From a virus: 64,000 nt of DNA. Positions within the stretch are counted from its first letter, which is position 1. Each line of letters begins with the position of its first letter. Shown in pieces: positions 822 to 34,898 of this stretch. The stretch is from positions 9,411 to 73,410 of IMG/VR virus record IMGVR_UViG_3300026473_000011. One strand, written 5' to 3'. The position numbers and the translations under genes were made by a program. The notes beneath the pieces are model-generated. The model saw only the letters and a list, made by a program, of their open reading frames with translations, was not told the DNA's origin and did no database searches.

Positions 822-824
822 CTC

Positions 825-9612: not shown

Positions 9613-9726
9613 TGCGAGATCCGTGCCAACGAGGAATTTAAATTAAACCCTTACGAATCAATAGGTTACGAGAGTTTTTCCAGAATTTGAACGTAAATTT
9701 ATTTACTTTAATGTAAATTTTTTATG
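9613..9726 (-). promoter_or_regulatory. Sigma-54 promoter with IHF site and upstream activator palindromes
   Basis: Minus-strand TTGGCACGGATCTCGCA (9613-9629); IHF consensus AATCAATAGGTTA (9656-9668); GTAAATTTATTTAC palindrome (9693-9706) plus a degenerate copy (9713-9726). Confidence 0.8.
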
Positions 9727-9728
9727 AT

Positions 9729-11258: not shown

Positions 11259-11380
11259 TCTTAGAATGATATGCTAACAAGCCACTCCGTTGCGGCTGGA
11301 GCCGACTCTCAAAATTCAGTTGCCAATTGAGATGAGCGATTCAGTATGAGGCTGTTGCCTCACATTAACTAAAGGTCATT

Positions 11381-15138: not shown

Positions 15139-15201
15139 GCGGCAATTAAACACCCAATTTCCCGCAAAAACAAGTCATAGACCGCATTTTTTGCGGGAAA
15201 T
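15128..15201. promoter_or_regulatory. Operator-like repeats at the fic promoter
   Basis: 14-bp IR ATTTCCCGCAAAAA/TTTTTGCGGGAAAT (15157-15201); CCGC-N7-GCGG boxes at 15128-15142 and 15182-15196. Confidence 0.55.
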
Positions 15202-15465
15202 AAGTTAAATATTCACCGCAATCAGTCCTCGATGCACGGTCAATGACTGAGTTAATTAACTCAACAAAGCACAAATGGGGAAATGGCCGTCCTCCTCTTT
15301 GCCGATCATTGTGGGCAATTCTGTATCACCTAAGCTGCAAATAGTCTTCTGGATTTGAACCCACATCTACAAGTCGTCTGGCTAAGTGCATCTTCAACAC
15401 CCCGCCTAAATCGGACTCTTTCCACACTTAATGGCAATATGGACTAACTATCACCGGAGACCAAA

Positions 15466-16080
15466 ATGAACGATCAAAGTCACAGCGCCACCATGGAGGA
15501 CAAACAGCGTTATGTGGCGCTGGACCTTGAATACAACCAACCCAGCGGGACCATCATCCAAGTTGGCGTCGCCATCGGTAGCGCTTCGCAAAACCAGCAA
15601 CAGTACATTGTCCGGCGATGGAATCTGCAAGTGGATGAGCCCATCACCGAGTTCATTACACAACTCACGGGCATCACCAATGAAGACTGCAGTGCAGGCG
15701 TGGGCCTCGCGCAATGTGCGCAAGAGCTTGGAGACCTACTGCGTGAGCAAGACGTATTCGTCAATCCAGTCACTTGGGGTGGAGGGGACTCGGCCGACCT
15801 GCTACGGGCGTTCGCTCAAGCGCAGATCGAGTTTCATCATTTCGGCCGTCGCTGGATTGATGTAAAGACTTGGACCACATTGCTGTCATTGGCGCGAACG
15901 CCCACTGCCACAGTTCAGCATGGCGGCTTGTCCAAGGCCATGGCGCGCTACAAGCTTCAGTTCGTGGGCAAAGCCCACCGCGCTGATGTCGATGCGTTTA
16001 ATACGCTGCGACTGTTTTTTGCCATCCTAGATCGTCAGCGCACCCTTGAAGGATGCGCCGCACAGATGAAAAATCTTTAA
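15466..16080 (+). CDS. DEDDh 3'-5' exonuclease
   Basis: ALDLEY, TWGGGD, HRADVDA. Confidence 0.85.
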   Translation: MNDQSHSATMEDKQRYVALDLEYNQPSGTIIQVGVAIGSASQNQQQYIVRRWNLQVDEPITEFITQLTGITNEDCSAGVGLAQCAQELGDLLREQDVFVNPVTWGGGDSADLLRAFAQAQIEFHHFGRRWIDVKTWTTLLSLARTPTATVQHGGLSKAMARYKLQFVGKAHRADVDAFNTLRLFFAILDRQRTLEGCAAQMKNL

Positions 16081-16145
16081 ACGAAAAGTGCGCAGCGACA
16101 CAACTTCAAACCCGGCCGGGAGAATTGAACCCAAATCCACAGCTA

Positions 16146-16454
16146 TCACTTTTGGCTAGCATGCAACGGCTGTGCATGGAGCTTGATTCCCAGTGCAGCA
16201 GTGACTTTCAGGATAGTGGCGAAGCTGGGGTTACCTTCCCCTGACAACGCCTTGTAGAGGCTTTCCCTACCCAGACCCGTATCGCGCGAAAGTTGCGACA
16301 TGCCCTTGGCTCGGGCAATGGTGCCCAGCGCCTTGGCAATAAAGGCGGCATCATCACCCGCCTCTTGCAGGCAAGCTTCCAAGTAAAGTGCCATGTCCTC
16401 ATCCGATTTGAGGTGTTCTGCACTATCCCATTTCCGTAGCTTAAGAGCAGTCAT
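16146..16454 (-). CDS. Addiction module antidote, HI1420-type HTH
   Basis: WDSAEHL...ALGTIARAKGMSQLSRDTGLGRESLYKALSGEGNPSF. Confidence 0.92.
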   Translation of the reverse strand: MTALKLRKWDSAEHLKSDEDMALYLEACLQEAGDDAAFIAKALGTIARAKGMSQLSRDTGLGRESLYKALSGEGNPSFATILKVTAALGIKLHAQPLHASQK

Positions 16455-16469
16455 CTGCCACTCCTTCAT

Positions 16470-16554
16470 TTGACGCTCCAGATCTCGCAGCGTGCAATAG
16501 ACCCGAAAGCCTGAATCAAGGCAAACTGTATCAATTGGGATACATTGATGTCAA
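16470..16554 (-). pseudogene. Possible remnant of the cognate RelE/HI1419-type toxin plus retained operator/promoter
   Basis: A short stretch translates SGFRVYCT (cf. PGYRVYF); palindrome TGTATC-N6-GATACA at 16527-16544; TTGACA at 16549-16554. Confidence 0.4.
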
Positions 16555-16868
16555 TCCCACCGAAACGGCAAAACCAACTTCATCACCTCAACATTAAAGA
16601 AGTCTTTAATTTGCCAGCGCACATTCAAGAGCTCTTTAAAAAGCCTATAGCACTGACCACAATGCTGCCCAAAAGCTGTGCTACGGACTGAGCGTCGCGA
16701 TGGAGCTCCAAGTGCACTGCTACGGTGTACCGGCTGGCCATGCCATAGTGGGCTCCACCCCTACAGAAATTGCCATTAGATTGGCATGTACTACTCATGC
16801 AACTCATTGACATGTATGATTTTTTCTGTAAAATAAGTGTGAAGTAACCACCCCCATTGGAAGCAGGC

Positions 16869-17528
16869 ATGAAGGTCGTTGACAGGCTTCGTAGATCCAT
16901 TGCCCAACGTCATGACCGAGTGATTCTTCGCTCAGAATTGACGGGGATGTGCAGCCCCTCCCAGCTCACCAATGCTTTGACTCAGCTCATCAATGAAGGA
17001 TCCCTGATGCGGGTGAGCTCCGGGGTCTACTCCAAAGGGAACATGAGCTCTGAAAATTCAGCTCTCTCGCCCTCTGGAGTTCAAGACATAGCGGCAGAAG
17101 TCTTCAGAAAATTAGGCCGTTCCATTAAAAGCGTCAGAACTGAATCAGATCCCAACCATGCAGTAGTTGTCATTGACGGAGGAAGTCATCGACTCAGCCG
17201 CAAATTCAAAATTGGCGATACCAAGATCGAATACTCGAGTCCGAAAACCACATGCCAAGCCCCCATCAATCTCCCCGATGACGTGGATGCTTTGCCCAAG
17301 AAAAATGTGAGCGATTTTGTCTACAGATTCGCACAGTCACGTCACGTGACTTTCAAGCGCTCTGGACTGGACCAGTGGGCAGAGGCAGTTACCCGTGCTG
17401 CCGGAGACGACGTGAAGCTGGATGAGACCGGCAAGCTTCTGGTCACCCTTAAAAAGAAGCATTTCATCAATGGACGGCAGATGGCTCGCTTGATGACAAA
17501 TCATCTGAGAGAGCACCATCGTGCTTGA
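16869..17528 (+). CDS. AbiEi-like wHTH protein with extra C-terminal domain, probable antitoxin
   Basis: ALTQLINEGSLMRVSSGVY; overlaps the fic start. Confidence 0.65.
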   Translation: MKVVDRLRRSIAQRHDRVILRSELTGMCSPSQLTNALTQLINEGSLMRVSSGVYSKGNMSSENSALSPSGVQDIAAEVFRKLGRSIKSVRTESDPNHAVVVIDGGSHRLSRKFKIGDTKIEYSSPKTTCQAPINLPDDVDALPKKNVSDFVYRFAQSRHVTFKRSGLDQWAEAVTRAAGDDVKLDETGKLLVTLKKKHFINGRQMARLMTNHLREHHRA

Positions 17529-18294
17529 TCCATTTGGTGACTTCGAAACCCGAGGCTATTTACAAAACGTTGAAGGCCTCAAAAACCTGGATGAAGTCAA
17601 GGTGTTGGAACACACCTTCTTCGAGGCCAACCTGGAAGACGCATTCCATTTTTTGAGGGAAATTAAGGGAGCACTGACCTACAAGCACTTCCTGAAGGTC
17701 CACTACATTCTGTTTAATGACTTCTACCCATGGGCGGGGCAAGACAGATTGCAGCTGGGCGTGGGCTCCCTCGTCGAAAAAGGGAATTTTCAATTTGAAG
17801 AGTCGTCTATGGCACAGCGCGCCGTCGAGTGGGGCCTGGAAATGGGAAACAACCCGGCAGTGTTGACCAAAAAGCCTGGCGTGGTGATGGGGCAGTTTGC
17901 ATGGGGCCACCCATTCCTTGATGGCAACGGGCGAACAATGTTGCTTGTTCACACAGAGCTATGCGCTCGAGCCAACTTCTCGATTGATTGGACGAACTCC
18001 AAGAAGGCAGACTACCTCCAAGCTTTAACCAATGAGCTGAGAACGCCGGACAAAGGTCTGCTGGATGCCTACTTCCAGCCGTTGATTCAGAAATTGCCCG
18101 AACGAAAAGTTTGGATTGAGCACATCAAAACTTTGTCTGGACTAGATGGTGCAAATACTGAAGACGACAACATGTCGTACACCGCTGATGATGCGCTGGC
18201 CAGACAGCGCTACGAAGAGGCCAACAAGCTGAGAAAAAGAAGCCTGCAAGGCCATCCGAATCCAGCAAGTGAGATTACCTCTCGGGACGTCTAA
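17521..18294 (+). CDS. Fic/DOC cell filamentation protein
   Basis: YPWAG, HPFLDGNGRT. Confidence 0.9.
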   Translation: MLDPFGDFETRGYLQNVEGLKNLDEVKVLEHTFFEANLEDAFHFLREIKGALTYKHFLKVHYILFNDFYPWAGQDRLQLGVGSLVEKGNFQFEESSMAQRAVEWGLEMGNNPAVLTKKPGVVMGQFAWGHPFLDGNGRTMLLVHTELCARANFSIDWTNSKKADYLQALTNELRTPDKGLLDAYFQPLIQKLPERKVWIEHIKTLSGLDGANTEDDNMSYTADDALARQRYEEANKLRKRSLQGHPNPASEITSRDV

Positions 18295-19420
18295 AGTCGA
18301 AGCGAACTACATATGACGATGGCAACATTTCGCTCTGCTTGTAGAGTTCATCTGCAAGCATTGGGCGCAATTCAAACGGTTTTCCAGTAGCGTCGAAGAA
18401 CACCAGATAGAAAAAATATGCTCTTTGGTGTTCTTTTGAGATAGAGACTATGTGTTCGTTATCTGACAAGAAAAAACGGTGACCTTCACCACCGGGAAGC
18501 TTACCAACTGCCTTGACCTCGATACATCGTTGTAGCTTTGGCGACGAATGCGACAGAAAGTCATAGCCATAGCCGGGCCGATCTCTCCGATCTTCAATTT
18601 TTAAGACAAGTTCCGGCTGGCCAATTCCTACTAGACGCTGCCGTTCCCATTCGAGTGCATACGCCTCCGCCATCTTGCCGATTCGGTCTCGCTGATTCTG
18701 AATATCTTCGAAATTGACCTTGCGATGGAATTTCCTCTTCGGTACAAGGACTGTTGCCACCGATTTTCGGTCATCGTTTCTGAAATAGGTTTGGTACAGG
18801 AACGACATGAACTTTGGATTGCTCCATGTTCGAGTGGTCTTGTTCGAAAACTTGGCAACCAATAGCGAGTGTTGATATTCGCTGGACGAACGATCATCGC
18901 CAAAACCAAGCGCCGCCCCGAGCATTGCCAGATGATCTGCACTACAGACATTAAGGAAACGGTCAGGGAAGTACAGACTCAGAATCTTGGCTTTGAACAT
19001 CTGAGACAGCGGATTCTTGTCAATTTCACCAAAATCCAACTGAGATGCTTGTCCAAGCCGAATTAGCTGCAACACAGCAGTCTTTACGGAATGAAACGCA
19101 TCGTCTTTTGTTTCTCCAAATCGGCGAACGAAGCGATATTTCTTTTGAGGATCTGTTTTTGTTTTCCCGAAGTAGATACCGAACTTCTCAGAAGTTGCCC
19201 CTTGGATATTTGCCCACGGCCTAGTTTTAGCTTCAACATGTGCACAAAACGTCGGTCGCTGATGACCAATGACGTAATCGTCGAGTTCTAGGCGTGGAAG
19301 TCTCCCCAAAGGAAACGCTTTGAGAAATTCACCGCGCGCTTGAGCGGCAACATCCTCACGGGTCACGTCATAAGTGCTCTCAAAGGCACTCAAATGCACT
19401 GCATCGAATCTAAGCATCAT
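18275..19420 (-). CDS. DUF3883 PD-(D/E)XK nuclease domain protein
   Basis: IGKMAE...GYGYDFLS...IEVKA...FFLSDNE. Confidence 0.8.
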   Translation of the reverse strand: MMLRFDAVHLSAFESTYDVTREDVAAQARGEFLKAFPLGRLPRLELDDYVIGHQRPTFCAHVEAKTRPWANIQGATSEKFGIYFGKTKTDPQKKYRFVRRFGETKDDAFHSVKTAVLQLIRLGQASQLDFGEIDKNPLSQMFKAKILSLYFPDRFLNVCSADHLAMLGAALGFGDDRSSSEYQHSLLVAKFSNKTTRTWSNPKFMSFLYQTYFRNDDRKSVATVLVPKRKFHRKVNFEDIQNQRDRIGKMAEAYALEWERQRLVGIGQPELVLKIEDRRDRPGYGYDFLSHSSPKLQRCIEVKAVGKLPGGEGHRFFLSDNEHIVSISKEHQRAYFFYLVFFDATGKPFELRPMLADELYKQSEMLPSSYVVRFDFRRPER

Positions 19421-19556
19421 TTATCCCATCATTATTTAGACGGCTAGATTAGCGTACGACTCGGTTTTTCTCACAATCTTGTTGTGTTAGCAAAATTACG
19501 GTTTTTTGATTTGATAATTTTTCGACTCAATTGATCAAGCAGCGTAGACCTGCAGG

Positions 19557-20729
19557 CTACCTTGGCTCTCCATATGCCTCACCCGTAAGCAACATTAGCG
19601 ACAATTCTGGCTTTGATTGGCGAAGAGCTTCAATCGACGCAACATAGCGTCTCGGCTCAGCGTGTGGAATGGCTACACCGTACTTTGCATTCCAATCTGA
19701 TGGACGCATCTCGAAGCATGCTAGGCCGGTACCCAGGGTAATGAGCTTGCTACCCAGCGGCGTCATAACCAGCCGACACCCACCCAAAATTGTCATGCTA
19801 TTTTGGTAACGCGTCATCGCTCCTAGGAGCTGCCGATAGGCTTCGAACGGTTGAGACTCCTGTGCATATAGGATATTAGCCGTCGGCGTCTTGCGACTAT
19901 CAAACAGCGACTCCCGGTATTCAACAAGAAGGCGATCGGCACGGCGCGGGTCCTTGGATGGATGCGGCACAACAGGACAAACCTCAGCCTCTGCCGGAAT
20001 CGAGCCAGCGATCTTCTGAAGTTGGTTGACCCGCCCTTCGCCAAGTACCGGAAACCACACTAGAGGCCAGTCTTGCACGCTTTCTAGCTGCCAAGTCGCG
20101 AAAAAACCTGGGATATTAACAAGGTCGTTGCTTGGGTCTTCGGCTCGAATTTGTCCATCAAGTTTGGCATCCTCAGCAACTAACACTTGAAAGTTGACAC
20201 CGTTGGCATACAGGGGGTGGGTGCCCCCTTCCACAATCACTTTGCTAGGCACCAACTTTTGCAGGATGTTAGTAAGAAGCGCGAGGTAAGTTGCCCGTGG
20301 CAATGAACTGACGTCCAAAATGATGTCCGTCTTACCGTCGATCTCATCAAGGACGGCCTTTACCCTCTGGCGTAGCACGTCACTAGCACTTGTTTCTTCC
20401 TCGTCTTTCGATCGCTCGATGGTTACAGAGACTGTTTGACCCAAAGGTGTAAATACCGCTTCGAGCGCGACTGCGTTCTCCTGCGTCAGCGTTTCGACAT
20501 CTTCATCCAGTTCGTAACCGTCAAAACCGAGCAGCAGCAATTTGGCACTCACGGTCTGCCTCCTGCCCCCCTGCTGTCCCCTCACGAATTCGCGCATCAC
20601 CGACTGCGCTCGCACATCAAAGCCACGACCAGCGATGTACAGCAACTGGACCGGCCGATCCTTAAGCAGGTCATCCCACAGTTCGTGAACGCCATCGCCG
20701 CGGCGAAAAACATAGTGATCCCAAAGCAT
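19557..20729 (-). CDS. Unknown Rossmann-type (possibly divergent CARF-like) protein, last gene of the operon
   Basis: 390 aa; IAGRGFDVR, IILDVSSLPR, TPLGSK; 1-bp gap to the ATPase gene. Confidence 0.7.
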   Translation of the reverse strand: MLWDHYVFRRGDGVHELWDDLLKDRPVQLLYIAGRGFDVRAQSVMREFVRGQQGGRRQTVSAKLLLLGFDGYELDEDVETLTQENAVALEAVFTPLGQTVSVTIERSKDEEETSASDVLRQRVKAVLDEIDGKTDIILDVSSLPRATYLALLTNILQKLVPSKVIVEGGTHPLYANGVNFQVLVAEDAKLDGQIRAEDPSNDLVNIPGFFATWQLESVQDWPLVWFPVLGEGRVNQLQKIAGSIPAEAEVCPVVPHPSKDPRRADRLLVEYRESLFDSRKTPTANILYAQESQPFEAYRQLLGAMTRYQNSMTILGGCRLVMTPLGSKLITLGTGLACFEMRPSDWNAKYGVAIPHAEPRRYVASIEALRQSKPELSLMLLTGEAYGEPR

Positions 20730-20730
20730 G

Positions 20731-22644
20731 TCAGCTCGTCTCCAGGCTCTTGCGGTTGGGCGTAAAACGTCGCTCCATCCATTTCATTAGTTCACCTGCG
20801 GTGACGTCTCGCCACCCCCCCATCTGCAGCGGAAGACCGAAATGAGCACAGAGTGAGCGATTGAGGTAGAAAACTGTTCCGCTATCGCGCGACCCAGTGG
20901 CCTGACTTTCACGCTGCACCAGGAGGTTTTCTGCAGCACATTCGGCTAACACGCGTTGCAAGGTCAGCCCTGGCGTGCCAAACGCGCCGGGAGTGGTCAA
21001 CTTGGCTAACTCTGCGCGTGACAGACGAACACCCGTCACACCGGGAGCGTAAGGCGCATTCGGTGCAAACGTCTGCTCGTAGCAGAACGCACCGATAGAA
21101 TCCACTAATCTTTGAGCACGGGTGCCTTCGGTATGTGATTTAGGAATGAAATCACGCCTGCGAGCGGCGGCCTCACGTAGCAACTTATCTTGTTCCACCG
21201 GGGAAAGAATAGGCTCAGATTTACGCAACACCTGCTTGGCCTGCAGGCCAACATAAAGCGCTGCGGCAAGCCCCAGCAGTTCCTCTACATTGTTCGTCGC
21301 CATAACGCACAAACGGTCGAATCCAAAGTAATAAGGTATACCCAGCTCTTCGTGCATGAATAACTCTGCAGCGTTGCGAACCTGGGAGCTATCGCGGTCC
21401 TCGAGCTCCTCCTCGGTCAAAGTCAAGTCCAAGGACATTTGGCGTTTCGATTCATCTCGCACCAGCAGAATTCTTGTAACGTAGAGTTCAAGCAGTGATT
21501 TCAGGTTCTGATCGGTCGTGTACTGGTCCGCACGTGCCAACCACTGGGCATAGCGCTGATTGGATTGATGACGCTCAACTTCACTACGGAAGCGTTCAAT
21601 ACCCTCGGCAACCTGAGCTCGCACCTCACTGCTTACCAATTCGTCGCGCAAACATTGCGTGAAAGATCCCACCGGTACTGCGTCCTGATTTTTCATACGC
21701 CGATCCAGGATATTCTGCGCATAGGAGACGAATTGGTTCACCCCTTTGGCATCGCTCCACATCCTGTCAAGGTTGTATTCACGCAGATCGCGCCCCTCGC
21801 GGGCACCCTGTGAGAGTAGTTCAGTGCCGAGTGCAACGGTACGTTCTGCTAACCAGATTGGGAGGGCGGGACGCATTACAGTCAGCTCGTCTACCAGAAG
21901 CGCCCTTTGCTTACGACGCAACTTGTGCATGTCATCGACCATCAGGAGCCGCTTAGCGGCAACAGCCCGCCCCTCATGGACGAAAATAACGGACTGCAAC
22001 CAAAGTACGCCTTCAAATCGGAACTGAACGGGTAGCGCCATGTTGACAGCTCCCGTGAACGTGTCTAACTGAGCATAAACCTGTTGCTCGTGCTCCTCGG
22101 CCCAGGTCGCCAACTCCAAAGCGTTCGTTATTGCCGGGATGCCCTTTAGGCCATCCAGGGCAGAATGGTCGAGTGACACTTCAGCCAATTGCTCAGGAGT
22201 ACTAAAGCCCAGCAACGCCCCCAAGCTGCGTAGCGTTCGCAGCACAATTCGACAATCCAGCAGCGCGCGGAAAAGGCCCTCGTGCTGCAGGCTTTCACTG
22301 GCAGGCAGATCGGCATACCCCGATGCGCAACTAAGATACACACCCAAAAGCTGCGGGCTTTCGCCTTCGGTTAGTAGTCCGCGATTCAGTAGTTTTTGGA
22401 AGGACTCTGACAATTCGGGACGATTGCGAGAGTGCCAGAAAGCACGTAGCGCGGACGGAGTGAATGCCCGCAGCAAAGTGGTCTTACCAGCACCAGGTGT
22501 GCTGCGAAACACGTGAACCGCACCATCGAATGCATCTTCGGCCAGTTTTTCTAAAATCTTTGGCGAGAAAAGACGTACAAACTCCATATCCGAAGTCGTG
22601 CGCTCAGACATTCGCTCCAGGAAAGGATTAACGTTGTATGCCAT
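20731..22644 (-). CDS. P-loop ATPase, ORC/CDC6- or STAND-like
   Basis: NPF N-terminus, STPGAGKTT Walker A, LLMVDD Walker B. Confidence 0.8.
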   Translation of the reverse strand: MAYNVNPFLERMSERTTSDMEFVRLFSPKILEKLAEDAFDGAVHVFRSTPGAGKTTLLRAFTPSALRAFWHSRNRPELSESFQKLLNRGLLTEGESPQLLGVYLSCASGYADLPASESLQHEGLFRALLDCRIVLRTLRSLGALLGFSTPEQLAEVSLDHSALDGLKGIPAITNALELATWAEEHEQQVYAQLDTFTGAVNMALPVQFRFEGVLWLQSVIFVHEGRAVAAKRLLMVDDMHKLRRKQRALLVDELTVMRPALPIWLAERTVALGTELLSQGAREGRDLREYNLDRMWSDAKGVNQFVSYAQNILDRRMKNQDAVPVGSFTQCLRDELVSSEVRAQVAEGIERFRSEVERHQSNQRYAQWLARADQYTTDQNLKSLLELYVTRILLVRDESKRQMSLDLTLTEEELEDRDSSQVRNAAELFMHEELGIPYYFGFDRLCVMATNNVEELLGLAAALYVGLQAKQVLRKSEPILSPVEQDKLLREAAARRRDFIPKSHTEGTRAQRLVDSIGAFCYEQTFAPNAPYAPGVTGVRLSRAELAKLTTPGAFGTPGLTLQRVLAECAAENLLVQRESQATGSRDSGTVFYLNRSLCAHFGLPLQMGGWRDVTAGELMKWMERRFTPNRKSLETS

Positions 22645-23750
22645 CAGAACTCCCGATGACGGCTGACCCTAGGGAACAGCCCGTGCGGCTTGAACTGTTC
22701 CGGCCCCCACAAAATATAAACCGAGTTATTCGGCGTGTTGTGTCCCAAAACCACTGGCAATGCACATCCGGCGAAACCCAGACTAGCCTCATTTGTCCCG
22801 CCTACGAGGAAGTGCTTATCGACCACACTACTGTTGGAGTAGGCAGGATTAGCAAGTAGCGCTTGCAAAGCAAGATTGACATTGTTGGTAAGCGAGACCT
22901 CAGGCTCGATTGGACACAGCACGCGCACTTGCAGAGGCTTGAAGCCATGATCCGTCGTGAACCGCTCTGACCAATATTCAATGTGGTCAATCGCCTGACG
23001 GGTTGCGGTGTAAAGCATTAAGAACACTTCATAGTGCGACGGGTCAACCATGCCACTCTGATGTAGCCGTTGGTAGATCTTTGGCAATTTTCCCTTGAAC
23101 CGGCGAGAAGTACCGTCGTATCGGATGTAGGTATTGCCGCTACCCGAGAAGTCATCTAGTAACCAGATCAGATTGAAGTGTGGAGCATCTGACACGAATC
23201 CAGCGTGTGTCAACGATACTTTCAACCCTTCGAGCATGTCTTCAGCCTTTTCATCACCCAGCTCATAGGCTTGCCAGATCTGCTCGTTACTGATCTCTCC
23301 ATCGCTAGCACGCCGCAATTCGTTGGTTCTCGCACCATCGCTCAAACCTAGATAAAGAGATGTCAAGCGCAGCTGCTCAAAACGTCGATGACGAGCAATT
23401 TCCTGGACTCTGAAGGAGGGGATCTCATGTTCTTCAGATACTAATCGGATACGCTCCTGCACGATCCAGTCGCGGTAAGCAGTTCGCACCAAATGGGAAA
23501 ACTCGGTATCAGAAATGAACACCAAGTGTTCCATGACCAGTTGCAAAGCGGCCTGCCGATCCTGAGGTTCGAACTGATGAAGCCATAACGCCAAGCTCTC
23601 AATGAAGCGACGCCCTGGCCCGAAACGCTGGTAATGGTCATATTTGAAGTCGGCTAGGAGTTGCAGGGTAGGCAACACCTGTGGGACGATTTCCAAATCG
23701 TCCCAACCCATAACCTTGGCCAGTAACTTGGCTGCATTCTGGTCATGCAT
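22644..23750 (-). CDS. Phosphoribosyltransferase-fold protein (PRTase-CE-like)
   Basis: LIWLLDDFSGSGNT PRPP-binding loop; LSDGA; HNTPNNS...LFPR C-terminus. Confidence 0.8.
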   Translation of the reverse strand: MHDQNAAKLLAKVMGWDDLEIVPQVLPTLQLLADFKYDHYQRFGPGRRFIESLALWLHQFEPQDRQAALQLVMEHLVFISDTEFSHLVRTAYRDWIVQERIRLVSEEHEIPSFRVQEIARHRRFEQLRLTSLYLGLSDGARTNELRRASDGEISNEQIWQAYELGDEKAEDMLEGLKVSLTHAGFVSDAPHFNLIWLLDDFSGSGNTYIRYDGTSRRFKGKLPKIYQRLHQSGMVDPSHYEVFLMLYTATRQAIDHIEYWSERFTTDHGFKPLQVRVLCPIEPEVSLTNNVNLALQALLANPAYSNSSVVDKHFLVGGTNEASLGFAGCALPVVLGHNTPNNSVYILWGPEQFKPHGLFPRVSRHREF

Positions 23751-25728
23751 CGTCAGCAACTCCGTTGTCCCGCGCCTCAGGAAGATCCAGCCGAAATACG
23801 CCACCATCCTCTAGCGTAATTCGATCCAAGTACCACAGCGTAGCATCGACATCACGCTTCTCCGCGGGCGCAAGCTTCCAAGCCCGGTCTAGTCGGCGCG
23901 AAGGCATGTCCACACTTAGCGAGTATCGGTGCTCGAGCAACGCGGCATCATTACCCGGCCACGCCCCCTGATCACCCAAAGTCAGGATTTCGTAGGGGTC
24001 GACCTTGTTCTTCTGAATGATGTCGGCCACAAGAGCAGACTTGCTGACTCCTTTAGCAAGAATATCGACCGAATGCTTGCTCCGAACCATGGTGGAGAGA
24101 TCGAGACCCGCTTGACGCAGAGCGTCGGCGATAACAAACCACATACCATCGGTCGTCAACCCTTCGGAAAACCGGACGCTGACCTGGTAGGGATGCGTAG
24201 TTCGATGTGTCAGGATTGGCACCCCCATCGACTTCAGACGTACCACGATGCGCGTCACATGACTGAGAAACTCGCTGGTCTCAGTCGAAGGTACTGGTGG
24301 CGTATCCGCTGCAGCAATCCAGCCCCCGTTGTATAGACCCAGCTTGATTCTAGGCAGGACGTCGCGCGGCATAACTTCTTCTAGGCAGGTCTGAATCGAC
24401 CCTCCTCGACCAGAGGCAATGCCGACCACTACACCTGCACGTGCCAAACGTACCAGATGCTCCACGATACCGAGCGGCGGCGGCAATTCCTTGGTCTGAG
24501 AACTGCAAAGTGTGCCGTCATAGTCGAATACCAAAGCTTTGAAGCGCTGCGCACGAATCGTGTCAGCAAAGGCTCTTGCCGCACGGCGCATGGTTCCATG
24601 ATCTCTCCGAGAAGGCCAATGCGCCCCTAGAACCTCATACTTGGATTGCTCCTCCGCTGGGCCTGCCGGCTGTGGCAACGGGATGACATCACGCAGATTC
24701 GCATAATGAATCTCTCTACCGTAGGTTGGCACCTTCGGCCGCCCTGGGTCGACACCGAGTTCGCGACCGACTGCTGCAACTAAATGCATCTGCGCTACAA
24801 GGCCAGTTATCAGATGAACCGGATCAGAGCCAGATAGCGGCATCGTCAGTGTCGGAATTTCACTAGGAAACTTGCTGCGCATTTCGTTCCACAGCTGGCC
24901 CAGAGATGGTTCGACCAGTGCCAAGATGGCGCAATCCTTCGGTCGCTGCGCTAACCACAAGTGTCGACCATGAGCAAACGAACGAAGATCGGCCAATTGA
25001 GTGTGCAGAAGCGCGCCCTCTGACAGCTTAGATTCCAAGTCAGTGGCTACAGCTCTCAGCAGCGGCGAATAGACGACCGTGAGTGCACCACGTTTAACCG
25101 CCTCGACAACGAATGGCCGGGCTACCCCAAGCCATTCTTGAACAGTCTGTTCACCCAATCGCAATTCTGTGACATTCGACGGCATGAGTTGAGGACGGCC
25201 ATTGAGCTCCCCGTATGCTCGCGCCACCAGCACAGCGTCGAGCAACAGACTGTTGGTAGCAAGGTAACCATCCTTCTTCTCCAACTCAAAAACGTACGGC
25301 TTCACGCCCGAAAAATCCTGAACATGCTCCATAAGTGGGCTGTTCTGCCGATTAGTCAGCACATGCACCGTACGCGAACTGAAGCGTCGTGCGCGCTCAA
25401 GCGCCTCCACAATGTCGGGGTTTTTACCTTCAGCCGATATAAGAAAGACTGGGCTAGAGGAAGCCAATGATGGCGAGCAGATGATCTCCAGCGGTGTCGA
25501 GGGCCGAGAGACTCGGCCGGTGTAGGCTTCATGCAAGCTGCACAACAGGGATGCCACAGTGAAGGATCCTCCCGAACCCACACCGATCATGCTTGCTTCA
25601 GCGGTACTGGCGATTGCTAGTTTTAGCGCTCCGATGTCGGCGGCGCACGCCGCCGAGTAGGTATTACCCAACTGTGCGAGTTCACCCTCATAGTGGTTGG
25701 GCGACAACGCTGCTCCGTCAGCAATCAT
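23743..25728 (-). CDS. SIS phosphosugar-binding/isomerase domain fused to a HAD (IIB-like) phosphatase
   Basis: GVGSGGS, ISAEGKNPD (SIS); FDYDGTL, ASGRG, GVSK, GD...GND (HAD). Confidence 0.85.
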   Translation of the reverse strand: MIADGAALSPNHYEGELAQLGNTYSAACAADIGALKLAIASTAEASMIGVGSGGSFTVASLLCSLHEAYTGRVSRPSTPLEIICSPSLASSSPVFLISAEGKNPDIVEALERARRFSSRTVHVLTNRQNSPLMEHVQDFSGVKPYVFELEKKDGYLATNSLLLDAVLVARAYGELNGRPQLMPSNVTELRLGEQTVQEWLGVARPFVVEAVKRGALTVVYSPLLRAVATDLESKLSEGALLHTQLADLRSFAHGRHLWLAQRPKDCAILALVEPSLGQLWNEMRSKFPSEIPTLTMPLSGSDPVHLITGLVAQMHLVAAVGRELGVDPGRPKVPTYGREIHYANLRDVIPLPQPAGPAEEQSKYEVLGAHWPSRRDHGTMRRAARAFADTIRAQRFKALVFDYDGTLCSSQTKELPPPLGIVEHLVRLARAGVVVGIASGRGGSIQTCLEEVMPRDVLPRIKLGLYNGGWIAAADTPPVPSTETSEFLSHVTRIVVRLKSMGVPILTHRTTHPYQVSVRFSEGLTTDGMWFVIADALRQAGLDLSTMVRSKHSVDILAKGVSKSALVADIIQKNKVDPYEILTLGDQGAWPGNDAALLEHRYSLSVDMPSRRLDRAWKLAPAEKRDVDATLWYLDRITLEDGGVFRLDLPEARDNGVADDA

Positions 25729-26333
25729 GCAGTTGCGGCCGCCCGTTTGGAGTCAAGCTTCGTACTCATCTTCGATGTCTTTTTAGCTACAACCGAATGC
25801 TTGGCGGCACTCTTGCGTGCAGGGCGTTGCATTGCATACACCGCACGAAGCTCCATCAACATCACCCCCAACATGTTCTCCCCCTTTCCTCCTACCTCAC
25901 CCCAAAGTCGATTAACGGCGTTGTTGACGGTGCCCGCCTCCACAAGCCTGGCCTCACCGGTGGACAACAGAAGCTCACGCAGGTCTGCGTGCTGGTCGAA
26001 CTTAGCACGCAGCACCGCACGCATTCGGTCGAATTTGATCTGAGCCCAATCGGGCACCACATCCCAGACATACAGACCGTGTGCCGCCATCGCGGCCAGG
26101 GCAGGAGTCGGCGCGTTGAGAATCCACTGGCGTACCGCCGGTTTGATCGCCTTGCCTGCCTGATATGCGTGTTCCGAGGTTGGGTAAACCGTCCCCTCAA
26201 ATTCCACAGGACACCTAAACAGATTACTGAAGGCGCCGAACGGCTTCTCGTTTGCGCGGTAAAAACGAATTTCCTGGACGGCAATGCTGTCGGTGGCTGG
26301 GCGTTTGCGCGCTGTCTGCGGCGTCTTAGTCAT
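25725..26333 (-). CDS. NADAR (YbiA-like) N-glycosidase
   Basis: FSNLF, YPTSEHAYQAGK, AKFDQH, LLSTG, LVE, WG, GENMLG..LMELR. Confidence 0.92.
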   Translation of the reverse strand: MTKTPQTARKRPATDSIAVQEIRFYRANEKPFGAFSNLFRCPVEFEGTVYPTSEHAYQAGKAIKPAVRQWILNAPTPALAAMAAHGLYVWDVVPDWAQIKFDRMRAVLRAKFDQHADLRELLLSTGEARLVEAGTVNNAVNRLWGEVGGKGENMLGVMLMELRAVYAMQRPARKSAAKHSVVAKKTSKMSTKLDSKRAAATA

Positions 26334-26518
26334 TGGAGGGATTCCTTGGAAGATTGTTCGGGGCTCAGCCCCAACACGCGGCAGTGATTGACGATCAAAA
26401 TTTCCAGCAAGCTGGTTAAGCTGCGGTGGTCATGCTCTGCCGCAGCCTCTGCTGCGGCCTTAATCTTTGGATCAATCCGGACAGTGATCGTGGCAGTCTT
26501 GATCTTGGGACGTCGCAT
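26330..26518 (-). CDS. Ribbon-helix-helix regulator
   Basis: KTATITVRIDPKIKAAAEAAAEHDHRSLTSLLE; overlaps the NADAR start. Confidence 0.8.
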   Translation of the reverse strand: MRRPKIKTATITVRIDPKIKAAAEAAAEHDHRSLTSLLEILIVNHCRVLGLSPEQSSKESLQ

Positions 26519-26562
26519 GATGATCAATTGTCAATGTATGAAAGGGGAATGTGAGCGCTTAA

Positions 26563-26585
26563 ATGTACTGCATTTTGCGGTACAT
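26563..26585. promoter_or_regulatory. Imperfect palindrome upstream of the RHH operon
   Basis: ATGTACTGCA-TTT-TGCGGTACAT. Confidence 0.5.
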
Positions 26586-26790
26586 AAAAGTACACATGTC
26601 TTTCGCAACGGCAATGATTCTGAAAGATTTGTATTTTTTGAATATTCACCAACACCTCCAGTTCCCCAAAGATTTATGACAGCTTGATGTGTTCAAGTTC
26701 AGAAGAAATTCTTTAAAAATTGGATGCACTCCTCAAAACAAAGATCTTTGTGTCACTCCTTGGTCAAATTTGAGCATTCTGTGCAGTTAA

Positions 26791-26827
26791 AGTACATCAT
26801 ATCATCATAATGATGATATGATGTACT
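26791..26827. promoter_or_regulatory. 37-bp perfect palindrome, probable WYL regulator operator
   Basis: AGTACATCATATCATCAT-A-ATGATGATATGATGTACT. Confidence 0.75.
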
Positions 26828-26865
26828 GGAAATTAGCCTATCTGCAAGCAAAGGTTATTACTGGC

Positions 26866-27756
26866 ATGAAAGCCCAGCGCGTCGAGAACTTGAGTCACGC
26901 CCAGCGCGAGCGACTGGCCTACATCGACTTTCGCCTGTACTTCCTCGGTGAAATCGGTCGTCCCGACCTGATTGAGCGTTTCGGTGTGGCTCCGGCAGGT
27001 GCGACGCGCGACTTGGCGCTTTACCGTGAAATCGCGCCGCAGAACATCACCTTTGACGGTAGAAATAAGATCTATCGCATTGGGCAGGAGTTCGCCCCAG
27101 TGTTCGACCACGCACCTCAGCGCGTGCTGTCAGCGCTGGCTCTTGGCTTTGGCGATGGCGTGAACGGGACAATGCAGTCCTTGCTGCCGTGTGAATCACC
27201 CACTTCCTTGAGCAGCCCAAAAATGGATGCGCTGGCCCCAGTCTGCCGGGCGATCCACGCCAACCGGCCAATCGCCATTCGCTACCAATCGATGAGTAGT
27301 GGAAAGACCGAGCGGATCATTGTGCCATTTGCCCTCGTGGATACCGGTCTACGCTGGCACGTCCGCGCCTTTGACCGCAAGAGCGGAGAGTTTCGGGACT
27401 TTGTCGTCACCCGTATCGAAGCGCCGACGCTGCTCGACGAGGAGCCACGGGCCAACGAACGTCCGGATAACGATATCCAGTGGACGCGCATCGTCGAGCT
27501 GGACTTCGTGCCGCATCCTCGCCTCGAGCGCCCTGAGATCATCCAGATGGACTACGGGATGACCGACGGCTCGATTCGGATGCGCGTGCGCGCAGCTGTA
27601 GCAGGCTACATGCTGTTACGCTGGAGTGTGGACTGCTCGTCCGACCACCATCTCAAGGAAGAACAGTATCGCCTATGGCTCAGCGATCCGCTTGCGCTTT
27701 ACGGCGTAGAAAATGCAAAGCTCGCGCCAGGATATCGATCACCAATCAGTATTTGA
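26866..27756 (+). CDS. WYL-domain transcriptional regulator (BrxR/CapW-like)
   Basis: RLAYIDFRLYFLG wHTH; RWHVRAFD...FRDFVVTRI WYL. Confidence 0.92.
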   Translation: MKAQRVENLSHAQRERLAYIDFRLYFLGEIGRPDLIERFGVAPAGATRDLALYREIAPQNITFDGRNKIYRIGQEFAPVFDHAPQRVLSALALGFGDGVNGTMQSLLPCESPTSLSSPKMDALAPVCRAIHANRPIAIRYQSMSSGKTERIIVPFALVDTGLRWHVRAFDRKSGEFRDFVVTRIEAPTLLDEEPRANERPDNDIQWTRIVELDFVPHPRLERPEIIQMDYGMTDGSIRMRVRAAVAGYMLLRWSVDCSSDHHLKEEQYRLWLSDPLALYGVENAKLAPGYRSPISI

Positions 27757-27794
27757 AGAAATAACAAAATACGAATCGAAAAGAAAATAAAACT

Positions 27795-29341
27795 ATGACT
27801 AGTATCCAACAACGCGCCGAACTACAACGCCGCATCTGGCAAATCGCCAACGATGTACGTGGGGCAGTCGACGGCTGGGATTTCAAACAATATGTACTCG
27901 GCGCCTTGTTTTACCGCTTCATCAGTGAAAACTTCGCCAGCTACATCGAAGGCGGTGATGACAGCATCCAATACGCCGAGTTGACAGATAGCGTGATCAC
28001 TCCAGATATCAAAGACGATGCGATTAAGACCAAGGGCTATTTCATCTACCCCAGCCAGTTGTTTGCCAACGTGGCTGCTAACGCTAACACCAGCGTAAGC
28101 CTGAATACCGACCTTGCTACCATCTTTGCCGCCATTGAAGCGTCCGCCAACGGCTACCCCTCCGAACAAGACATCAAAGGCCTGTTTGCTGACTTTGACA
28201 CCACCAGCAACCGCCTCGGCAACACTGTCAAAGACAAAAATGCCCGGCTCGCCGCAGTGCTCAAGGGCGTAGCCGAGTTGGACTTCGGCGACTTCGACGC
28301 CAGCCATATCGACCTGTTCGGCGATGCCTATGAATTCCTCATTTCCAACTACGCTGCCAATGCCGGTAAATCGGGCGGCGAGTTTTTCACGCCGCAACAT
28401 GTGTCCAAGCTAATTGCCCAATTGGCGATGCACAAGCAAACCAGCGTCAACAAGATTTACGACCCCGCCTGCGGCTCCGGCTCGCTGCTACTGCAAGCCA
28501 AAAAGCACTTTGACGCGCACATCATCGAGGAAGGCTTTTTTGGGCAAGAAATCAACCACACCACTTACAACCTGGCGCGGATGAACATGTTCTTGCACAA
28601 CATCAACTACGACAAGTTCAACGTTCAGCTTGGCAACACCCTGATCGACCCGCATTTTGGTGATGACAAACCCTTCGATGCCATCGTCTCTAACCCGCCC
28701 TATTCGGTGAAGTGGATCGGTTCGGACGATCCCACTCTGATCAACGATGAGCGCTTTGCCCCGGCGGGCGTTCTGGCTCCCAAATCCAAAGCCGACTTTG
28801 CCTTTGTGCTGCACGCGCTGAGTTACCTCTCGAGCAAAGGTCGCGCCGCCATCGTCTGCTTTCCCGGTATTTTTTATCGCGGTGGGGCCGAGCAAAAGAT
28901 CCGTCAGTATCTAGTGGATAACAACTACGTCGAATCCGTGATTTCGCTAGCGCCTAACCTGTTCTACGGCACAACCATCGCCGTGACCATTCTGGTGCTA
29001 TCCAAACACAAAACCGACACCACCACCCAGTTCATCGACGCCAGCGGCCTGTTCAAGAAAGAAACCAACAACAACGTTCTGCTGGACGCGCACATCGAAC
29101 AAATCATGGCCGTGTTCGACAGCAAGGCGAATGTGGATCACGTTGCCCAATCTGTCCCTTTCGAGAAAGTGGCCGCCAACGATTACAACCTGTCGGTCAG
29201 TAGCTACGTCGAAGCCCGCGACAACCGCGAAGTCGTGGACATCAAGTCACTCAACGAGAAGATTGCAAACATCGTAGTGCGACAGACGGAGTTGCGAACG
29301 CAGATTGATGCCATCGTTGCGGAGTTGGAAGGAGAGGAAGC

Positions 29342-29345
<4 letters not shown>
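27795..29345 (+). CDS. hsdM: Type I R-M methyltransferase subunit
   Basis: [20 protein letters not shown]. Confidence 0.97.
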
Positions 29346-30563
<1,218 letters not shown>

Positions 30564-30564
30564 G

Positions 30565-31773
30565 ATGAGCAAAACGCTAACCGAAATCGCTCAACAGCTG
30601 GGAGCCGCCGACAAAAAGATGCAGCTGATCTATGCCTTCAACGGCATGGGCAAGACGCGCCTGTCGCGGGAATTCAAGCAGCAGATTGCGACCGAGGCCG
30701 ACGGCGATGAAGACGCCGATCCAACCGCGCTGTCGCGCAACAGAATCCTTTATTACAACGCGCTCACGGAAGATTTGTTTTACTGGGATAACGATCTGGC
30801 GGGCAATGCCGAGCACAAACTGAAAATCCAACCAAACTCGTTTACCGACTGGGTGCTGAAGGATCAGGGGCAAGACCAGAACATCATCACAACCTTTCAG
30901 CGTTACACCAGCGATAAGCTCACACCGCGATTCAATGAAGAATATAAAGTCATAGGCAATGACGACAAGGAAAGCACCGTCAAAGCCTTCTCTGAAGTAA
31001 CTTTCTCTCTTGAGCGTGGCGATGATGAACACTCCGGAAATTTGAAAATTTCCAAGGGCGAAGAAAGCAATTTCATCTGGAGCTTTTTCTACACGCTGAT
31101 TGAGCAGGTAATTGGCGTTCTCAATGTTGCCGAGCCGGAAGAACGCGAAACAGACCAATTCGATCAGCTGAAATATATTTTTGTTGATGATCCGGTTAGC
31201 TCACTGGATGACAATCATTTGATTCAGTTGGCCGCGGATTTGGCGCAGCTGGTCAAATCAAACGAATCCAGTGTCAAATTCATTATCACGACGCACAATC
31301 CGCTTTTCTTCAATGTGCTTTGCAATGAGTTTGGTAGCGATGAAAAAACCGAGCGCTACAACTGGAAGGCAAAGTGGTTCAGCAAGTCACGGCTGGAGAA
31401 AAATGCGGACGGCAGTCTTCAATTGGTAGAGCAGCCAAACGATTCTCCGTTTGCGTATCACCTGCATCTGCTATCGCTGCTTGAAGAGGCAATAAAAAGC
31501 GGTCAGATCGAAAAATATCACTTCAATCTTCTCCGGAACATTCTCGAAAAGACGGCAACATTCCTCGGATACAAAAGGTGGGAACACCTTCTGCCGGAAA
31601 CAGACGACGGCTTGCCCAACCCGTACGCAAAGCGAATTGTGAACTTCTCAAGCCATTCGAAACATGCTGCCGAAGAAGTGTCACCACTGAAACCTGAAGA
31701 GAGACAGGTTCTGGAAAAACTGGTCAAGCACGTTGTCGAGCAACATCGATTTTGGCAGGAAAAAACCACATGA
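30565..31773 (+). CDS. prrC: PrrC-like anticodon nuclease (ABC ATPase + HEPN)
   Basis: [33 protein letters not shown]; lies between hsdS and hsdR. Confidence 0.85.
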
Positions 31774-34700: not shown

Positions 34701-34877
34701 CGCTATATCGCTACTTCACTCAAGAGAGAGTTTGCCAGCGATAGCGGCACGGAACTGAACGCCGTGTTGCCCAAGATGAGCCCACTGAACCCGCAATACC
34801 TTACGAAGAAGCAGAGCGTGTTCCAGAAAATCGCCGCTTTTGTGGAAAAGTTTAAAGGCGTGGGTGGGAATGTCTAA
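31770..34877 (+). CDS. hsdR: Type I R-M restriction subunit
   Basis: [35 protein letters not shown]. Confidence 0.97.
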
Positions 34878-34898
34878 AAGGCTTCAAGGGGAATTTTT

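Follow-up and report, generated by a model that had tools for sequence, protein, structure and literature searches.

Here we describe a candidate defence cassette of about 7 kb carried by the IMG/VR virus record IMGVR_UViG_3300026473_000011, of which positions 9,411 to 73,410 were analysed as one stretch of 64,000 nucleotides (the window; coordinates refer to it unless stated otherwise). The open reading frame (ORF) listing of the window gives six tightly packed ORFs on the minus strand, within 19557-26527. In coding order, they encode a ribbon-helix-helix (RHH)-like protein (26330-26518; 62 amino acids from the ATG at 26518, with a TTG at 26527 also possible), a NADAR protein (25725-26333; 202 amino acids), a SIS-HAD fusion (23743-25728; 661 amino acids), a phosphoribosyltransferase (PRTase) of the PRTase-CE type (22644-23750; 368 amino acids from the conserved start), an ORC/CDC6-like AAA+ ATPase (20731-22644; 637 amino acids) and a tandem-CARF protein (19557-20729; 390 amino acids). 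The longest ORF of the PRTase begins at 23807, and we set its start at M20 of that ORF because 16 of 17 aligned homologues begin there. With this start, successive genes from RHH to the ATPase overlap by 4, 4, 8 and 1 bp, and 1 bp separates the ATPase from CARF. A first-pass annotation, made from the letters of the window alone, had described six tightly coupled genes with such overlaps, as the ORF coordinates bear out, and its domain calls for all six were reproduced by our Pfam, PADLOC and NCBIfam searches, weakly in the case of RHH and, in Pfam, of SIS. The locus looks like a mobile CARF-ATPase-PRTase candidate defence cassette.

The same arrangement recurs well beyond the window. Scanning one genome per species across 185,579 species with peptide patterns of the CARF family yielded 79 distinct loci, which divide into a close clade with 47-91% CARF identity to the window, including the window copy itself, and a distant clade with 27-36%. 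Gene presence was scored by tblastn with the window proteins, counting only loci with enough upstream DNA. Specifically, the ATPase is present in 53/54 close-clade and 18/18 distant-clade loci, the PRTase in 51/52 and 16/18 (with two partial matches), and the SIS-HAD protein in 49/51 and 17/18 (in one case placed downstream). NADAR accompanies 50 of the 51 close-clade cassettes and none of the 17 distant-clade ones at that position, while RHH, a short protein for which detection is limited, is found in 33/51 and 0/17, respectively. As for the close-clade exceptions, the cassette of L032 is truncated and L040 gives only a partial SIS-HAD match. The order is collinear nearly everywhere, with junctions of -8 to +2 bp in most loci, and its recurrence in 79 independent loci places the arrangement far beyond chance. 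A putative NADAR-SIS-HAD fusion in L035 and L037 was rejected, a stop codon lying between the genes.

The distant form, about 30% identical and found at L062-L079 (e.g. L062:11089-12201 and L066:5047-5709) and L082, has accessory genes of its own. A PfkB-family kinase gene lies directly after the CARF gene in 15/18 loci (E values of 1e-10 to 1e-15), and three loci carry a dCTP-deaminase/dUTPase-like gene between SIS-HAD and PRTase. In two Mesorhizobium loci (L071 and L073) the PfkB kinase occurs together with an opposite-strand NADAR that is 63-71% identical to the window NADAR. Since SIS-HAD, PRTase, ATPase and CARF are kept in both clades and NADAR/RHH only in the close clade, the four former genes constitute the core of the cassette, with NADAR/RHH and PfkB as alternative accessories. 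The identities of the four core proteins to the window copy vary together (Spearman rho of 0.87-0.97 over 62 loci), which fits transfer as a unit, although shared ancestry alone gives the same correlation. The first-pass annotation had named a lack of co-conservation as speaking against an operon of this kind; we looked for it, and the core proved to be co-conserved across the 79 loci. Its six-gene unit thus holds for the four genes kept in both clades and not for NADAR and RHH, which are restricted to one.

The last gene, previously called Rossmann/CARF-like, can be sharpened to a tandem CARF sensor. Its product matches the PADLOC CARF6 profile PDLC01910 (1.5e-125, 417 bits), with residues 1-386 aligned to positions 1-347 of the 348 in the profile, and gave no match in the Pfam search; CARF6 was reportedly defined by Makarova et al. 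in 2020. The AlphaFold model, built with 21 homologues, has a mean predicted local distance difference test (pLDDT) of 88.7 and a predicted template-modelling score of 0.91. By VIA-align, it superposes best on Can1 (6sce; Z 14.4, root-mean-square deviation (rmsd) 3.4, 233 residues aligned), followed by Csm6 (Z 12.2) and Can2 (Z 11.3, rmsd 2.2, 113 aligned), with Card1, Cam1, VC1899 and Csa3 further down, together with SAVED domains (Z 8-9). Because the Can1 match spans residues 28-361, and hence both halves, and each of the 25 top-ranking rows (25/25) is a CARF or SAVED protein, the modelled protein consists of two CARF-like Rossmann domains in one chain, without an effector domain. In domain 1, the motif D139-V-S141-S-L-P144-R145 follows directly on the fourth strand (135-139); D139, S141 and P144 are invariant, and R145 is kept in at least 90% of the sequences. 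The motif, whose basic residue comes immediately behind strand 4, fits the [DN]X[ST]XXX[RK] signature described for CARF domains (PMC4012209). In domain 2, the invariant K328 comes after the corresponding strand 4 (318-324), with a spacing that is one residue longer. A profile search of 1.84 billion cluster representatives found 879 CARF6 clusters, 379 of them at E <= 1e-30, and the best 150 representatives are stand-alone proteins, almost all of about 360-400 amino acids and one of 559. The family profile has no solved relative by sequence in the PDB. We predict that the CARF protein is a small-molecule sensor.

A strong match to the Cas10 palm domain (PF22335, E <= 1e-16) occurs in 6/30 host genomes, some of which are incomplete; weaker PF22335 matches, which an Escherichia coli control shows as well, are probably cross-hits to GGDEF domains. 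In the three genomes checked by contig coordinates (G025-G027), the Cas10 matches all lie far from the cassette, and no cas gene is among the top 25 Pfam/PADLOC families listed for the 135 nearest flanking ORFs. Since strong Cas10 occurs in only 6 of 30 host genomes, the CARF ligand is probably not a cyclic oligoadenylate (cOA) from a resident type III system in most hosts. The cassette could nevertheless be conceived as a trans-acting ancillary module of type III CRISPR-Cas or of the cyclic-oligonucleotide-based antiphage signalling system (CBASS), with the CARF protein sensing cOA made elsewhere by Cas10 or a CD-NTase and turning on the PRTase and SIS-HAD. PADLOC does group CARF6 with cas-associated CARF families, the best structural match, Can1, is a cA4-activated tandem-CARF nuclease, and the six Cas10-bearing hosts would suit such a role. 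Against this, 24/30 hosts lack strong Cas10 (with the same caveat on completeness), the located Cas10 genes are distant, the listed flank families include no cas, and the cassette travels alone on plasmids and on the phage-like record. On host-genome searches that covered Cas10 but not CD-NTases, we regard a CRISPR or CBASS dependence as very unlikely.

The ATPase lies between the predicted sensor and the PRTase; almost everywhere, the first base of its gene is also the last of the PRTase stop codon, a 1-bp overlap. It matches PF24389 (2.6e-24, 86.4 bits against a cut-off of 27) over residues 51-607, and the ESM Atlas clusters nearest to it are named ORC-CDC6 family AAA ATPase. The Walker A motif PGAGKT is found at residues 50-55 and the Walker B motif LLMVDD at 233-238; GxGK[ST] and hhhhD[DE] are each conserved in 70/72 homologues. 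We folded the full ATPase together with CARF residues 25-385, and the predicted complex reached an ipSAE interface score of 0.65 (0.67, 0.62 and 0.65 in individual runs), compared with 0.00 for the best of three controls. The score mark is reached by 58/80 solved complexes and 2/110 mismatched pairs, a calibration that is only rough with user-made alignments; a pass supports binding without showing it. At least 82% of the contacts recur between runs, and the partner has a pLDDT of at least 80. The predicted interface involves W181, A182, E186 and D194 of the ATPase, which are family-invariant, and G208, F209 and E216 of the CARF protein, which are near-invariant. That these residues are kept across both clades is an independent hint of binding, and the interface leaves the CARF signature residues free. 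Altogether, the modelling supports binding of the CARF protein to the ATPase, which we predict to act as the switch between sensor and effector; the earlier proposal that the ATPase gates the response gains support from this complex.

The predicted effector is the PRTase. It matches PF24390 (4.4e-15, 56.7 bits against a cut-off of 27, residues 75-380) and, in PADLOC, the PRTase_III-A model of type III-A retrons (2.3e-14). Its phosphoribosyl pyrophosphate (PRPP) loop, LDDFSGSG, conforms to [LIVM]DDF[ST][GA]SG in 67/67 homologues, and an HN[ST]PNNS motif is present in 64/67; overall, the catalytic motifs are kept in 59-67 of 67. The protein has a helical N-terminal region ahead of its type I PRTase fold, and VIA-align places the model (pLDDT 81.3) nearest to uracil phosphoribosyltransferase (1bd3; Z 9.7, rmsd 4.0, 170 aligned) and hypoxanthine-guanine phosphoribosyltransferase (2xbu; Z 9.0). 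These scores are middling but consistent, the top ten rows all being type I PRTase-fold proteins. The family profile finds no solved relative by sequence in the PDB, and no winged-helix C-terminal domain was detected. The stretch G344-x14-P359-N-N corresponds to Gx14PNNxP without the last P, a motif given as specific to retron PRTases (PMC12746101). The PRTase of Retron-Eco11 is reported there to lower PRPP by about half upon activation, with abortive infection. In ShosT, a PRTase is joined to a hydrolase whose removal of pyrophosphate drives the reaction, and ShosT disturbs purine metabolism (PMC11961720).

The SIS-HAD protein combines a probable double-SIS, phosphosugar-binding or isomerase-like module (about residues 1-380) with a HAD-IIB phosphatase (about 395-640). 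The HAD half matches TIGR01484 (8.1e-11, 42.4 bits against a cut-off of 41.8) and Hydrolase_3 (3.3e-07), and its profile reaches the sugar phosphatase BT4131 (1ymq, 3.1e-7). For the SIS half, a family profile of 18 homologues searched against the PDB reaches the double-SIS protein 2aml (3.8e-7) and also 3hba, 3eua (a putative fructosamine-6-phosphate deglycase) and 8eol (a NagB-II glucosamine-6-phosphate deaminase). The SIS motifs GSGG and HGRH are each found in 64/66 homologues, and the pattern E...HG(R)H is conserved, which may correspond to the catalytic Glu and His of GlmS. In the HAD half, motif I (D402-x-D404-G) is conserved in 65/66 homologues, motif II ([ST]GRG) and motif IV (GD...GND) in 66/66 each, and K563 is invariant. 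In all, the catalytic motifs, including all four HAD motifs, are kept in 61-66 of 66 homologues. The recognisable catalytic motifs reported at first sight are thus conserved in homologues of all enzymes. The SIS-HAD protein had been cast as an eraser or recycler of a PRTase product; its place in the core makes it more likely the working partner of the PRTase.

An enzyme pair present throughout also invites a different reading, in which the SIS-HAD, the PRTase and PfkB or NADAR would start from a sugar phosphate and a base to make, and trim, a messenger derived from ribose phosphate or an analogue of a nucleotide, the CARF protein would read the product, and the ATPase or the analogue itself would be the effector. 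With SIS-HAD in the core, more than one enzyme is always needed, and the SIS half comes closest to enzymes with C-N chemistry on sugar phosphates, of the GlmS, FrlB and NagB-II types. In 15 of the 18 distant loci, PfkB with SIS and HAD completes the isomerase/kinase/phosphatase trio of activated-sugar biosynthesis, a logic like that of GmhA/HldE/GmhB in ADP-heptose synthesis. The cassette holds no other signal generator, and strong Cas10 is lacking in 24/30 hosts. Several findings point the other way: the ligands known for CARF and SAVED domains are oligonucleotides, cyclic or linear, and the product of a PRTase is a mononucleotide, the close clade has no kinase, and the ATPase, spanned by PF24389 at residues 51-607, has no recognisable toxic domain. 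Moreover, the PRTase is a member of an effector family, PRTase-CE/retron type III-A, in which the one studied protein depletes PRPP (PMC12746101). A self-made signal therefore appears doubtful to us, and depletion by the PRTase the better account.

The two genes at the head of the operon are restricted to the close clade. NADAR matches PF08719 (4.3e-24, 86 bits against a cut-off of 35.1) and TIGR02464 (4.7e-23), with [ST]xEHx[YFW]Q in 47/48 and NxLGxxLMxxR in 48/48 homologues; it scores 60.7 bits against the anti-phage DS32_2 model NF053876, below the cut-off of 240. The RHH gene product gives weak matches that are all under the cut-offs, namely YlcI/YnfO (0.0019), TacA1 (0.0021, 18.4 bits against 21), HicB (0.0081), RelB/DinJ (0.038, 12.9 bits against 45.65) and a FitA-like RHH (0.044). 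It is probably an accessory transcriptional regulator or antitoxin-like component; the gene downstream of it, NADAR, is to our knowledge not a toxin. Upstream, the AT-rich, divergent intergenic region of 299 bp between the RHH and WYL genes (26519-26817) is the probable promoter/operator region of the cassette. The only sigma-70-like match in 19300-26900 lies on the minus strand at 26832-26804. A perfect inverted repeat of 18+18 nt with a 1-nt spacer (26791-26827) overlaps this match and the WYL start codon; it is absent from the 82 other loci and so is not a conserved part of the cassette. This repeat may serve as an operator for the WYL or the RHH protein.

NADAR was central to the original proposal of an N-ribosyl-phosphate adduct or signal formed by the PRTase, erased or recycled by NADAR and SIS-HAD and gated by the ATPase. 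Spelled out, the PRTase would phosphoribosylate a macromolecule or base (DNA, RNA, protein or nucleotide) as the toxic or signalling act, and NADAR, with SIS-HAD, would erase the mark in the manner of a toxin-antitoxin pair, the RHH protein acting as regulator and the ATPase as gate. In its favour, the RHH gene heads the operon, NADAR is coupled to the cassette in 50/51 close-clade loci, and the opposite-strand NADAR inside L071 and L073 suggests repeated recruitment. We know of no precedent for SIS-HAD chemistry on a macromolecular adduct, which counts against the scheme, and Pfam, PADLOC and NCBIfam searches found no ADP-ribosyltransferase or DarT-like enzyme in the cassette. NADARs are ribosyl N-glycosidases that replace Macro domains in DarT-DarG-like toxin-antitoxin systems (PMC9503650), which speaks for the scheme. 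However, 17/17 distant-clade cassettes lack NADAR/RHH at that position and keep the PRTase, so an eraser is not obligatory, and the eraser role proposed for NADAR is not essential to the mechanism. Neither Retron-Eco11 (PMC12746101) nor ShosT (PMC11961720) is described as forming a reversible adduct. Taken together, adduct formation and erasure seem unlikely.

The distribution of the cassette bears on whether it is a defence system or ordinary metabolism. Hosts include Beta-, Gamma- and Alphaproteobacteria, Acidobacteriota, Nitrospiraceae, Chlorobiales, Brevifollis, Trichlorobacter, a cyanobacterium, Bacillota, Phycisphaeraceae, Armatimonadota and one Thermoplasmata archaeon, with the distant, PfkB-bearing form reaching Cyanobacteria, Bacillota, Planctomycetota, Armatimonadota and the one Thermoplasmata archaeon. 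We found no CARF6 homologue in 50,697 GenBank phage records. The cassette occurs on 20 plasmids, 9 of them predicted conjugative. On plasmid bgla_2p of Burkholderia gladioli BSR3 it is annotated as NADAR, HAD and three hypothetical proteins; on a conjugative plasmid of Agrobacterium, the PfkB form lies in TniB/Mu-transposase (Tn7-like) cargo, 6 kb from a Shedu nuclease. The flanks are not conserved: among 580 flanking ORFs, no cluster except PfkB occurs in more than three loci, and the 135 nearest carry 116 Pfam families. They include mobility genes (phage integrase 3, rve 2, TraG 2, plus TrwC, TrbI and transposase; relaxase and type IV secretion genes) and, by Pfam, the defence genes N6_Mtase (2), Mrr (2) and BrxL (1), a descriptive tally without a matched control. 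PADLOC matches in the flanks comprise BrxL, type I and type IIG restriction-modification (R-M), AbiEii, PD-T7-1, PD-T7-5, MkoC and others.

A plain metabolic operon that salvages or breaks down a nucleoside, aminosugar or ribosylamine and happens to ride on mobile elements would account for some of these features. N-glycosidase, SIS, HAD, PRTase and PfkB all have housekeeping relatives, RefSeq labels three core proteins hypothetical and the others NADAR or HAD, and a few nucleotide-metabolism genes occur in the flanks. However, no conserved transporter or catabolic regulator lies nearby, the ORC/CDC6-like ATPase and the tandem CARF protein are invariant partners, and the PRTase belongs to an effector family. 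The spread is also patchy, with 56-91% identity to the window CARF across unrelated phyla, and the places where the cassette is found are defence islands, plasmids, the cargo of a transposon and a record resembling a prophage. We thus consider a housekeeping role highly improbable; the cassette is self-contained and sits in defence and mobile contexts, as expected of the candidate defence operon that the first-pass annotation had taken it to be.

We assign a probability of roughly 0.5 to the reading that the cassette is a CRISPR-independent, horizontally mobile anti-phage system of sensor-switch-effector design which depletes PRPP or nucleotides. It draws on the observed gene content, synteny, catalytic motifs, folds, mobile and defence contexts and predicted ATPase-CARF interface; in the scheme that follows, we infer what the ligand and substrate are, which way the chemistry runs and what phenotype results. 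The stand-alone tandem CARF protein would bind a nucleotide-derived small molecule and dock on the ORC/CDC6-like AAA+ ATPase, which would switch by changing conformation and might sense DNA as well. The ATPase would then license the PRTase-CE, which, by analogy with the retron and ShosT enzymes, may consume PRPP through phosphoribosyl transfer or hydrolysis. The SIS-HAD protein would act on the resulting ribose phosphate, be it product or co-product, isomerising or deglycating it before dephosphorylation and so making the drain irreversible. Nucleotide synthesis would then collapse, and infection would be abortive. In the close clade, NADAR may regenerate the acceptor base, rendering the cycle catalytic, or detoxify a basal product, with the RHH protein regulating transcription of the operon; in the distant clade, the PfkB kinase, with or without the dCTP-deaminase-like enzyme, would take the accessory role. 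The PRTase-ATPase-CARF order would mirror the effector-NTPase-sensor layout of STAND-type immune proteins, split into three subunits. Compared with the original proposal, the co-conserved defence cassette and the ATPase gate are retained, while NADAR and RHH leave the core and the SIS-HAD protein becomes the more likely partner of the PRTase.

Several points weigh against this depletion scheme. The literature offers no experimental work on the cassette and no named system of this kind, with key comparative-genomics papers lying outside the search. The ATPase-CARF pair is the one covered by complex prediction, so that a PRTase-ATPase contact is without support, and we found no longer or fused CARF or PRTase forms, including PRTase-ATPase and CARF-ATPase fusions, although such absence is weak evidence. 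The SIS half matches Pfam PF01380 only weakly (E 0.032; 14.5 bits, the cut-off being 25), the sequence does not reveal which substrate it takes, and a universal SIS-HAD pair with a kinase in one clade also fits biosynthesis of a signal or analogue. No enzyme generating a signal for the CARF protein is evident in the cassette, CD-NTases having not been searched in the host genomes, and the 6/30 hosts with strong Cas10 allow cOA sensing in trans there. Furthermore, the flanks also hold housekeeping genes (NrdD, IMPDH and GMP synthase), the count of defence genes beside them is uncontrolled, and the metatranscriptome contigs described below, covering genes on both strands, are no proof of transcription.

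A variant that keeps the cassette CRISPR-independent proposes a regulated futile cycle on ribose phosphate or else a novel ribose-phosphate messenger or antiviral nucleotide analogue, which we entertain only tentatively. The CARF-ATPase pair would detect an infection-derived nucleotide other than cOA from the host's own Cas10; PRTase and NADAR together would in net terms hydrolyse PRPP and recycle the base, HAD phosphatase and PfkB would in net terms hydrolyse ATP on a pentose, and the SIS module would divert the sugar from salvage.

Systems of this general kind, nucleotide-targeting effectors under NTPase and sensor control, are known, because Pfam names two of the component families and PADLOC lists CARF6 and the retron PRTases. 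Predicted conflict systems of PRTase-CE with ORC-CDC6-like ATPases were reportedly defined by Nicastro, Burroughs, Iyer and Aravind in Nucleic Acids Research in 2023, and our cassette agrees with them, matching PF24390 and PF24389 above the gathering cut-offs. PRTase goes unmentioned in the main text of the CoCoNuT paper, of Kaur et al. 2020 and of the 2025 CRISPR classification. Our literature searches, which did not extend to key comparative-genomics papers, turned up no account of the gene set. The neighbourhood has probably been catalogued already in comparative-genomics papers. PADLOC names no system for the exact combination and recognises only single components, in accordance with the initial remark that it is not a named system. 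Should the neighbourhood prove to be in print, new here would still be the division into clades, the fold of the tandem CARF protein, the predicted interface between ATPase and CARF and the copy carried by a phage.

Comparison with individual systems brings out likenesses and differences. Type III-A retrons (Retron-Eco11, type III-A3) share the PRTase family, the PRPP loop and the G-x14-P-N-N motif (PMC12746101), but are regulated by reverse transcriptase and multicopy single-stranded DNA, in place of the ATPase and CARF protein here, where the SIS-HAD is an extra obligatory enzyme. No reverse transcriptase was matched in the six cassette ORFs by Pfam, PADLOC or NCBIfam, and no non-coding RNA search was run. 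ShosTA likewise couples a PRTase to a hydrolase (PMC11961720), whereas the cassette hydrolase is a separate SIS-HAD protein and control would lie with the ATPase and CARF protein; at E <= 0.1, PADLOC gave no ShosT or ShosA match for the six proteins, and there is no ShosA-like antitoxin. Can1 and other type III CARF effectors, as well as CBASS SAVED sensors, also have two CARF-like domains forming a pseudo-dimer in one chain, but the cassette CARF protein carries no fused effector, no cas is listed nearby, and most hosts have no clear Cas10. Chp, a CARF-HAD effector, depletes ATP and IMP (PMC12715507), and with PUA-Calcineurin-CE-HAD (bioRxiv 10.64898/2026.01.15.699771) it shares with the cassette a HAD phosphatase in a sensor-controlled, nucleotide-depleting effector. 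The cassette HAD differs from both in being of the IIB sugar-phosphatase type, fused to a double SIS and not to a sensor, and lying beside a PRTase. The effector-NTPase-sensor order is shared with STAND/Avs-type and HINPO-type NTPase systems, except that the cassette modules are separate polypeptides and the effector is metabolic, not a nuclease or HEPN. ORC-CDC6-like NTPases have been proposed as DNA sensors or switches in other immune systems (bioRxiv 10.64898/2026.10.19.760177).

If the depletion scheme is right, the cassette would use a CARF sensor without a CRISPR or CBASS signal generator in the cassette, couple it to an ORC/CDC6-like ATPase as separate subunits, and kill or arrest the cell by a multi-enzyme attack on PRPP and ribose-phosphate metabolism and not by a nuclease. 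A futile cycle or messenger would represent a kind of multi-enzyme metabolic effector not yet demonstrated in bacterial immunity, and would supply a ligand class for a non-CRISPR CARF family. In either case, the cassette poses the question of what a CRISPR-independent CARF protein binds. It is compact and widespread, carried by plasmids, transposons and at least one phage-like element, and hence easy to clone, and the natural swap of NADAR/RHH for PfkB offers a ready comparison for working out the chemistry.

In the record studied here, which is 73,410 bp long, classed as viral by the collection and siphovirus-like, the cassette lies in an island of about 30 kb with a GC content of 0.48-0.55, compared with about 0.6 elsewhere. 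One end of the record (record positions 1-9410, window 1-6000) holds ParB-methyltransferase and primase genes. Because the island lies between a serine integrase (4011-5399) and the tail genes, the cassette rides in an accessory region of a temperate-phage-like element. Beyond the island are tail fibre J (44372-47881), the tape measure (50238-52685) and the large terminase TerL (59962-61668), as well as the major head protein, protease and portal (within 36000-64000). No tRNA was found in the window.

The cassette's immediate neighbours were already given as a DUF3883 nuclease and a WYL/type I R-M locus, and both are confirmed. The former (18275-19420, minus strand) is a PD-T4-1 homologue with NOV_C/DUF3883 (PADLOC 2.3e-168 over the full length; NOV_C 1.3e-09). 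On the other side, the WYL gene (26818-27756) stands just upstream of the plus-strand R-M locus (27795-34877), which consists of hsdM (27795-29345), hsdS (29342-30052) and hsdR (31752-34877). A PrrC-like anticodon nuclease gene (30565-31773; PADLOC PrrC 1e-145) is embedded between hsdS and hsdR, the classic prr arrangement. The island also encodes a SoFic-like Fic/DUF4172 protein (14023-15153; PADLOC SoFic 3.3e-40), a DEDDh/RNase_T exonuclease (15466-16080) and a DUF6088-like protein paired with a second Fic protein (16857-17528 and 17521-18294).

Farther out, an RtcR-like sigma-54 activator (9729-11258) matches Sigma54_activat (9.7e-66) and, weakly, RtcR/CARF (2.2e-4); the ORFs around it (6403-7563, 7901-8875, 8918-9580 and 11381-12430) have no Pfam or PADLOC match. 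Possibly, this region (6403-12430) represents another module of the island under CARF control. The ORFs at 34899-35840 and 36247-36873 have no family match, and a minus-strand ORF with a radical SAM domain (37666-39087; 8.6e-06, weak and under the cut-off) lies at the boundary between island and phage tail.

Among riverine metatranscriptomes, 10 runs contain the stretch. Contigs from four runs cover all 30 bins of 15000-34900, including genes of either orientation, and the cassette is contained in full in a single contig (19091-26787); such contigs give no strand, ends or level, and DNA carry-over is possible. In three of the four runs, contigs end at 16864-16874 with an Illumina adapter at the loose end, at the start of the 16857-17528 gene, and this position may mark an RNA end.

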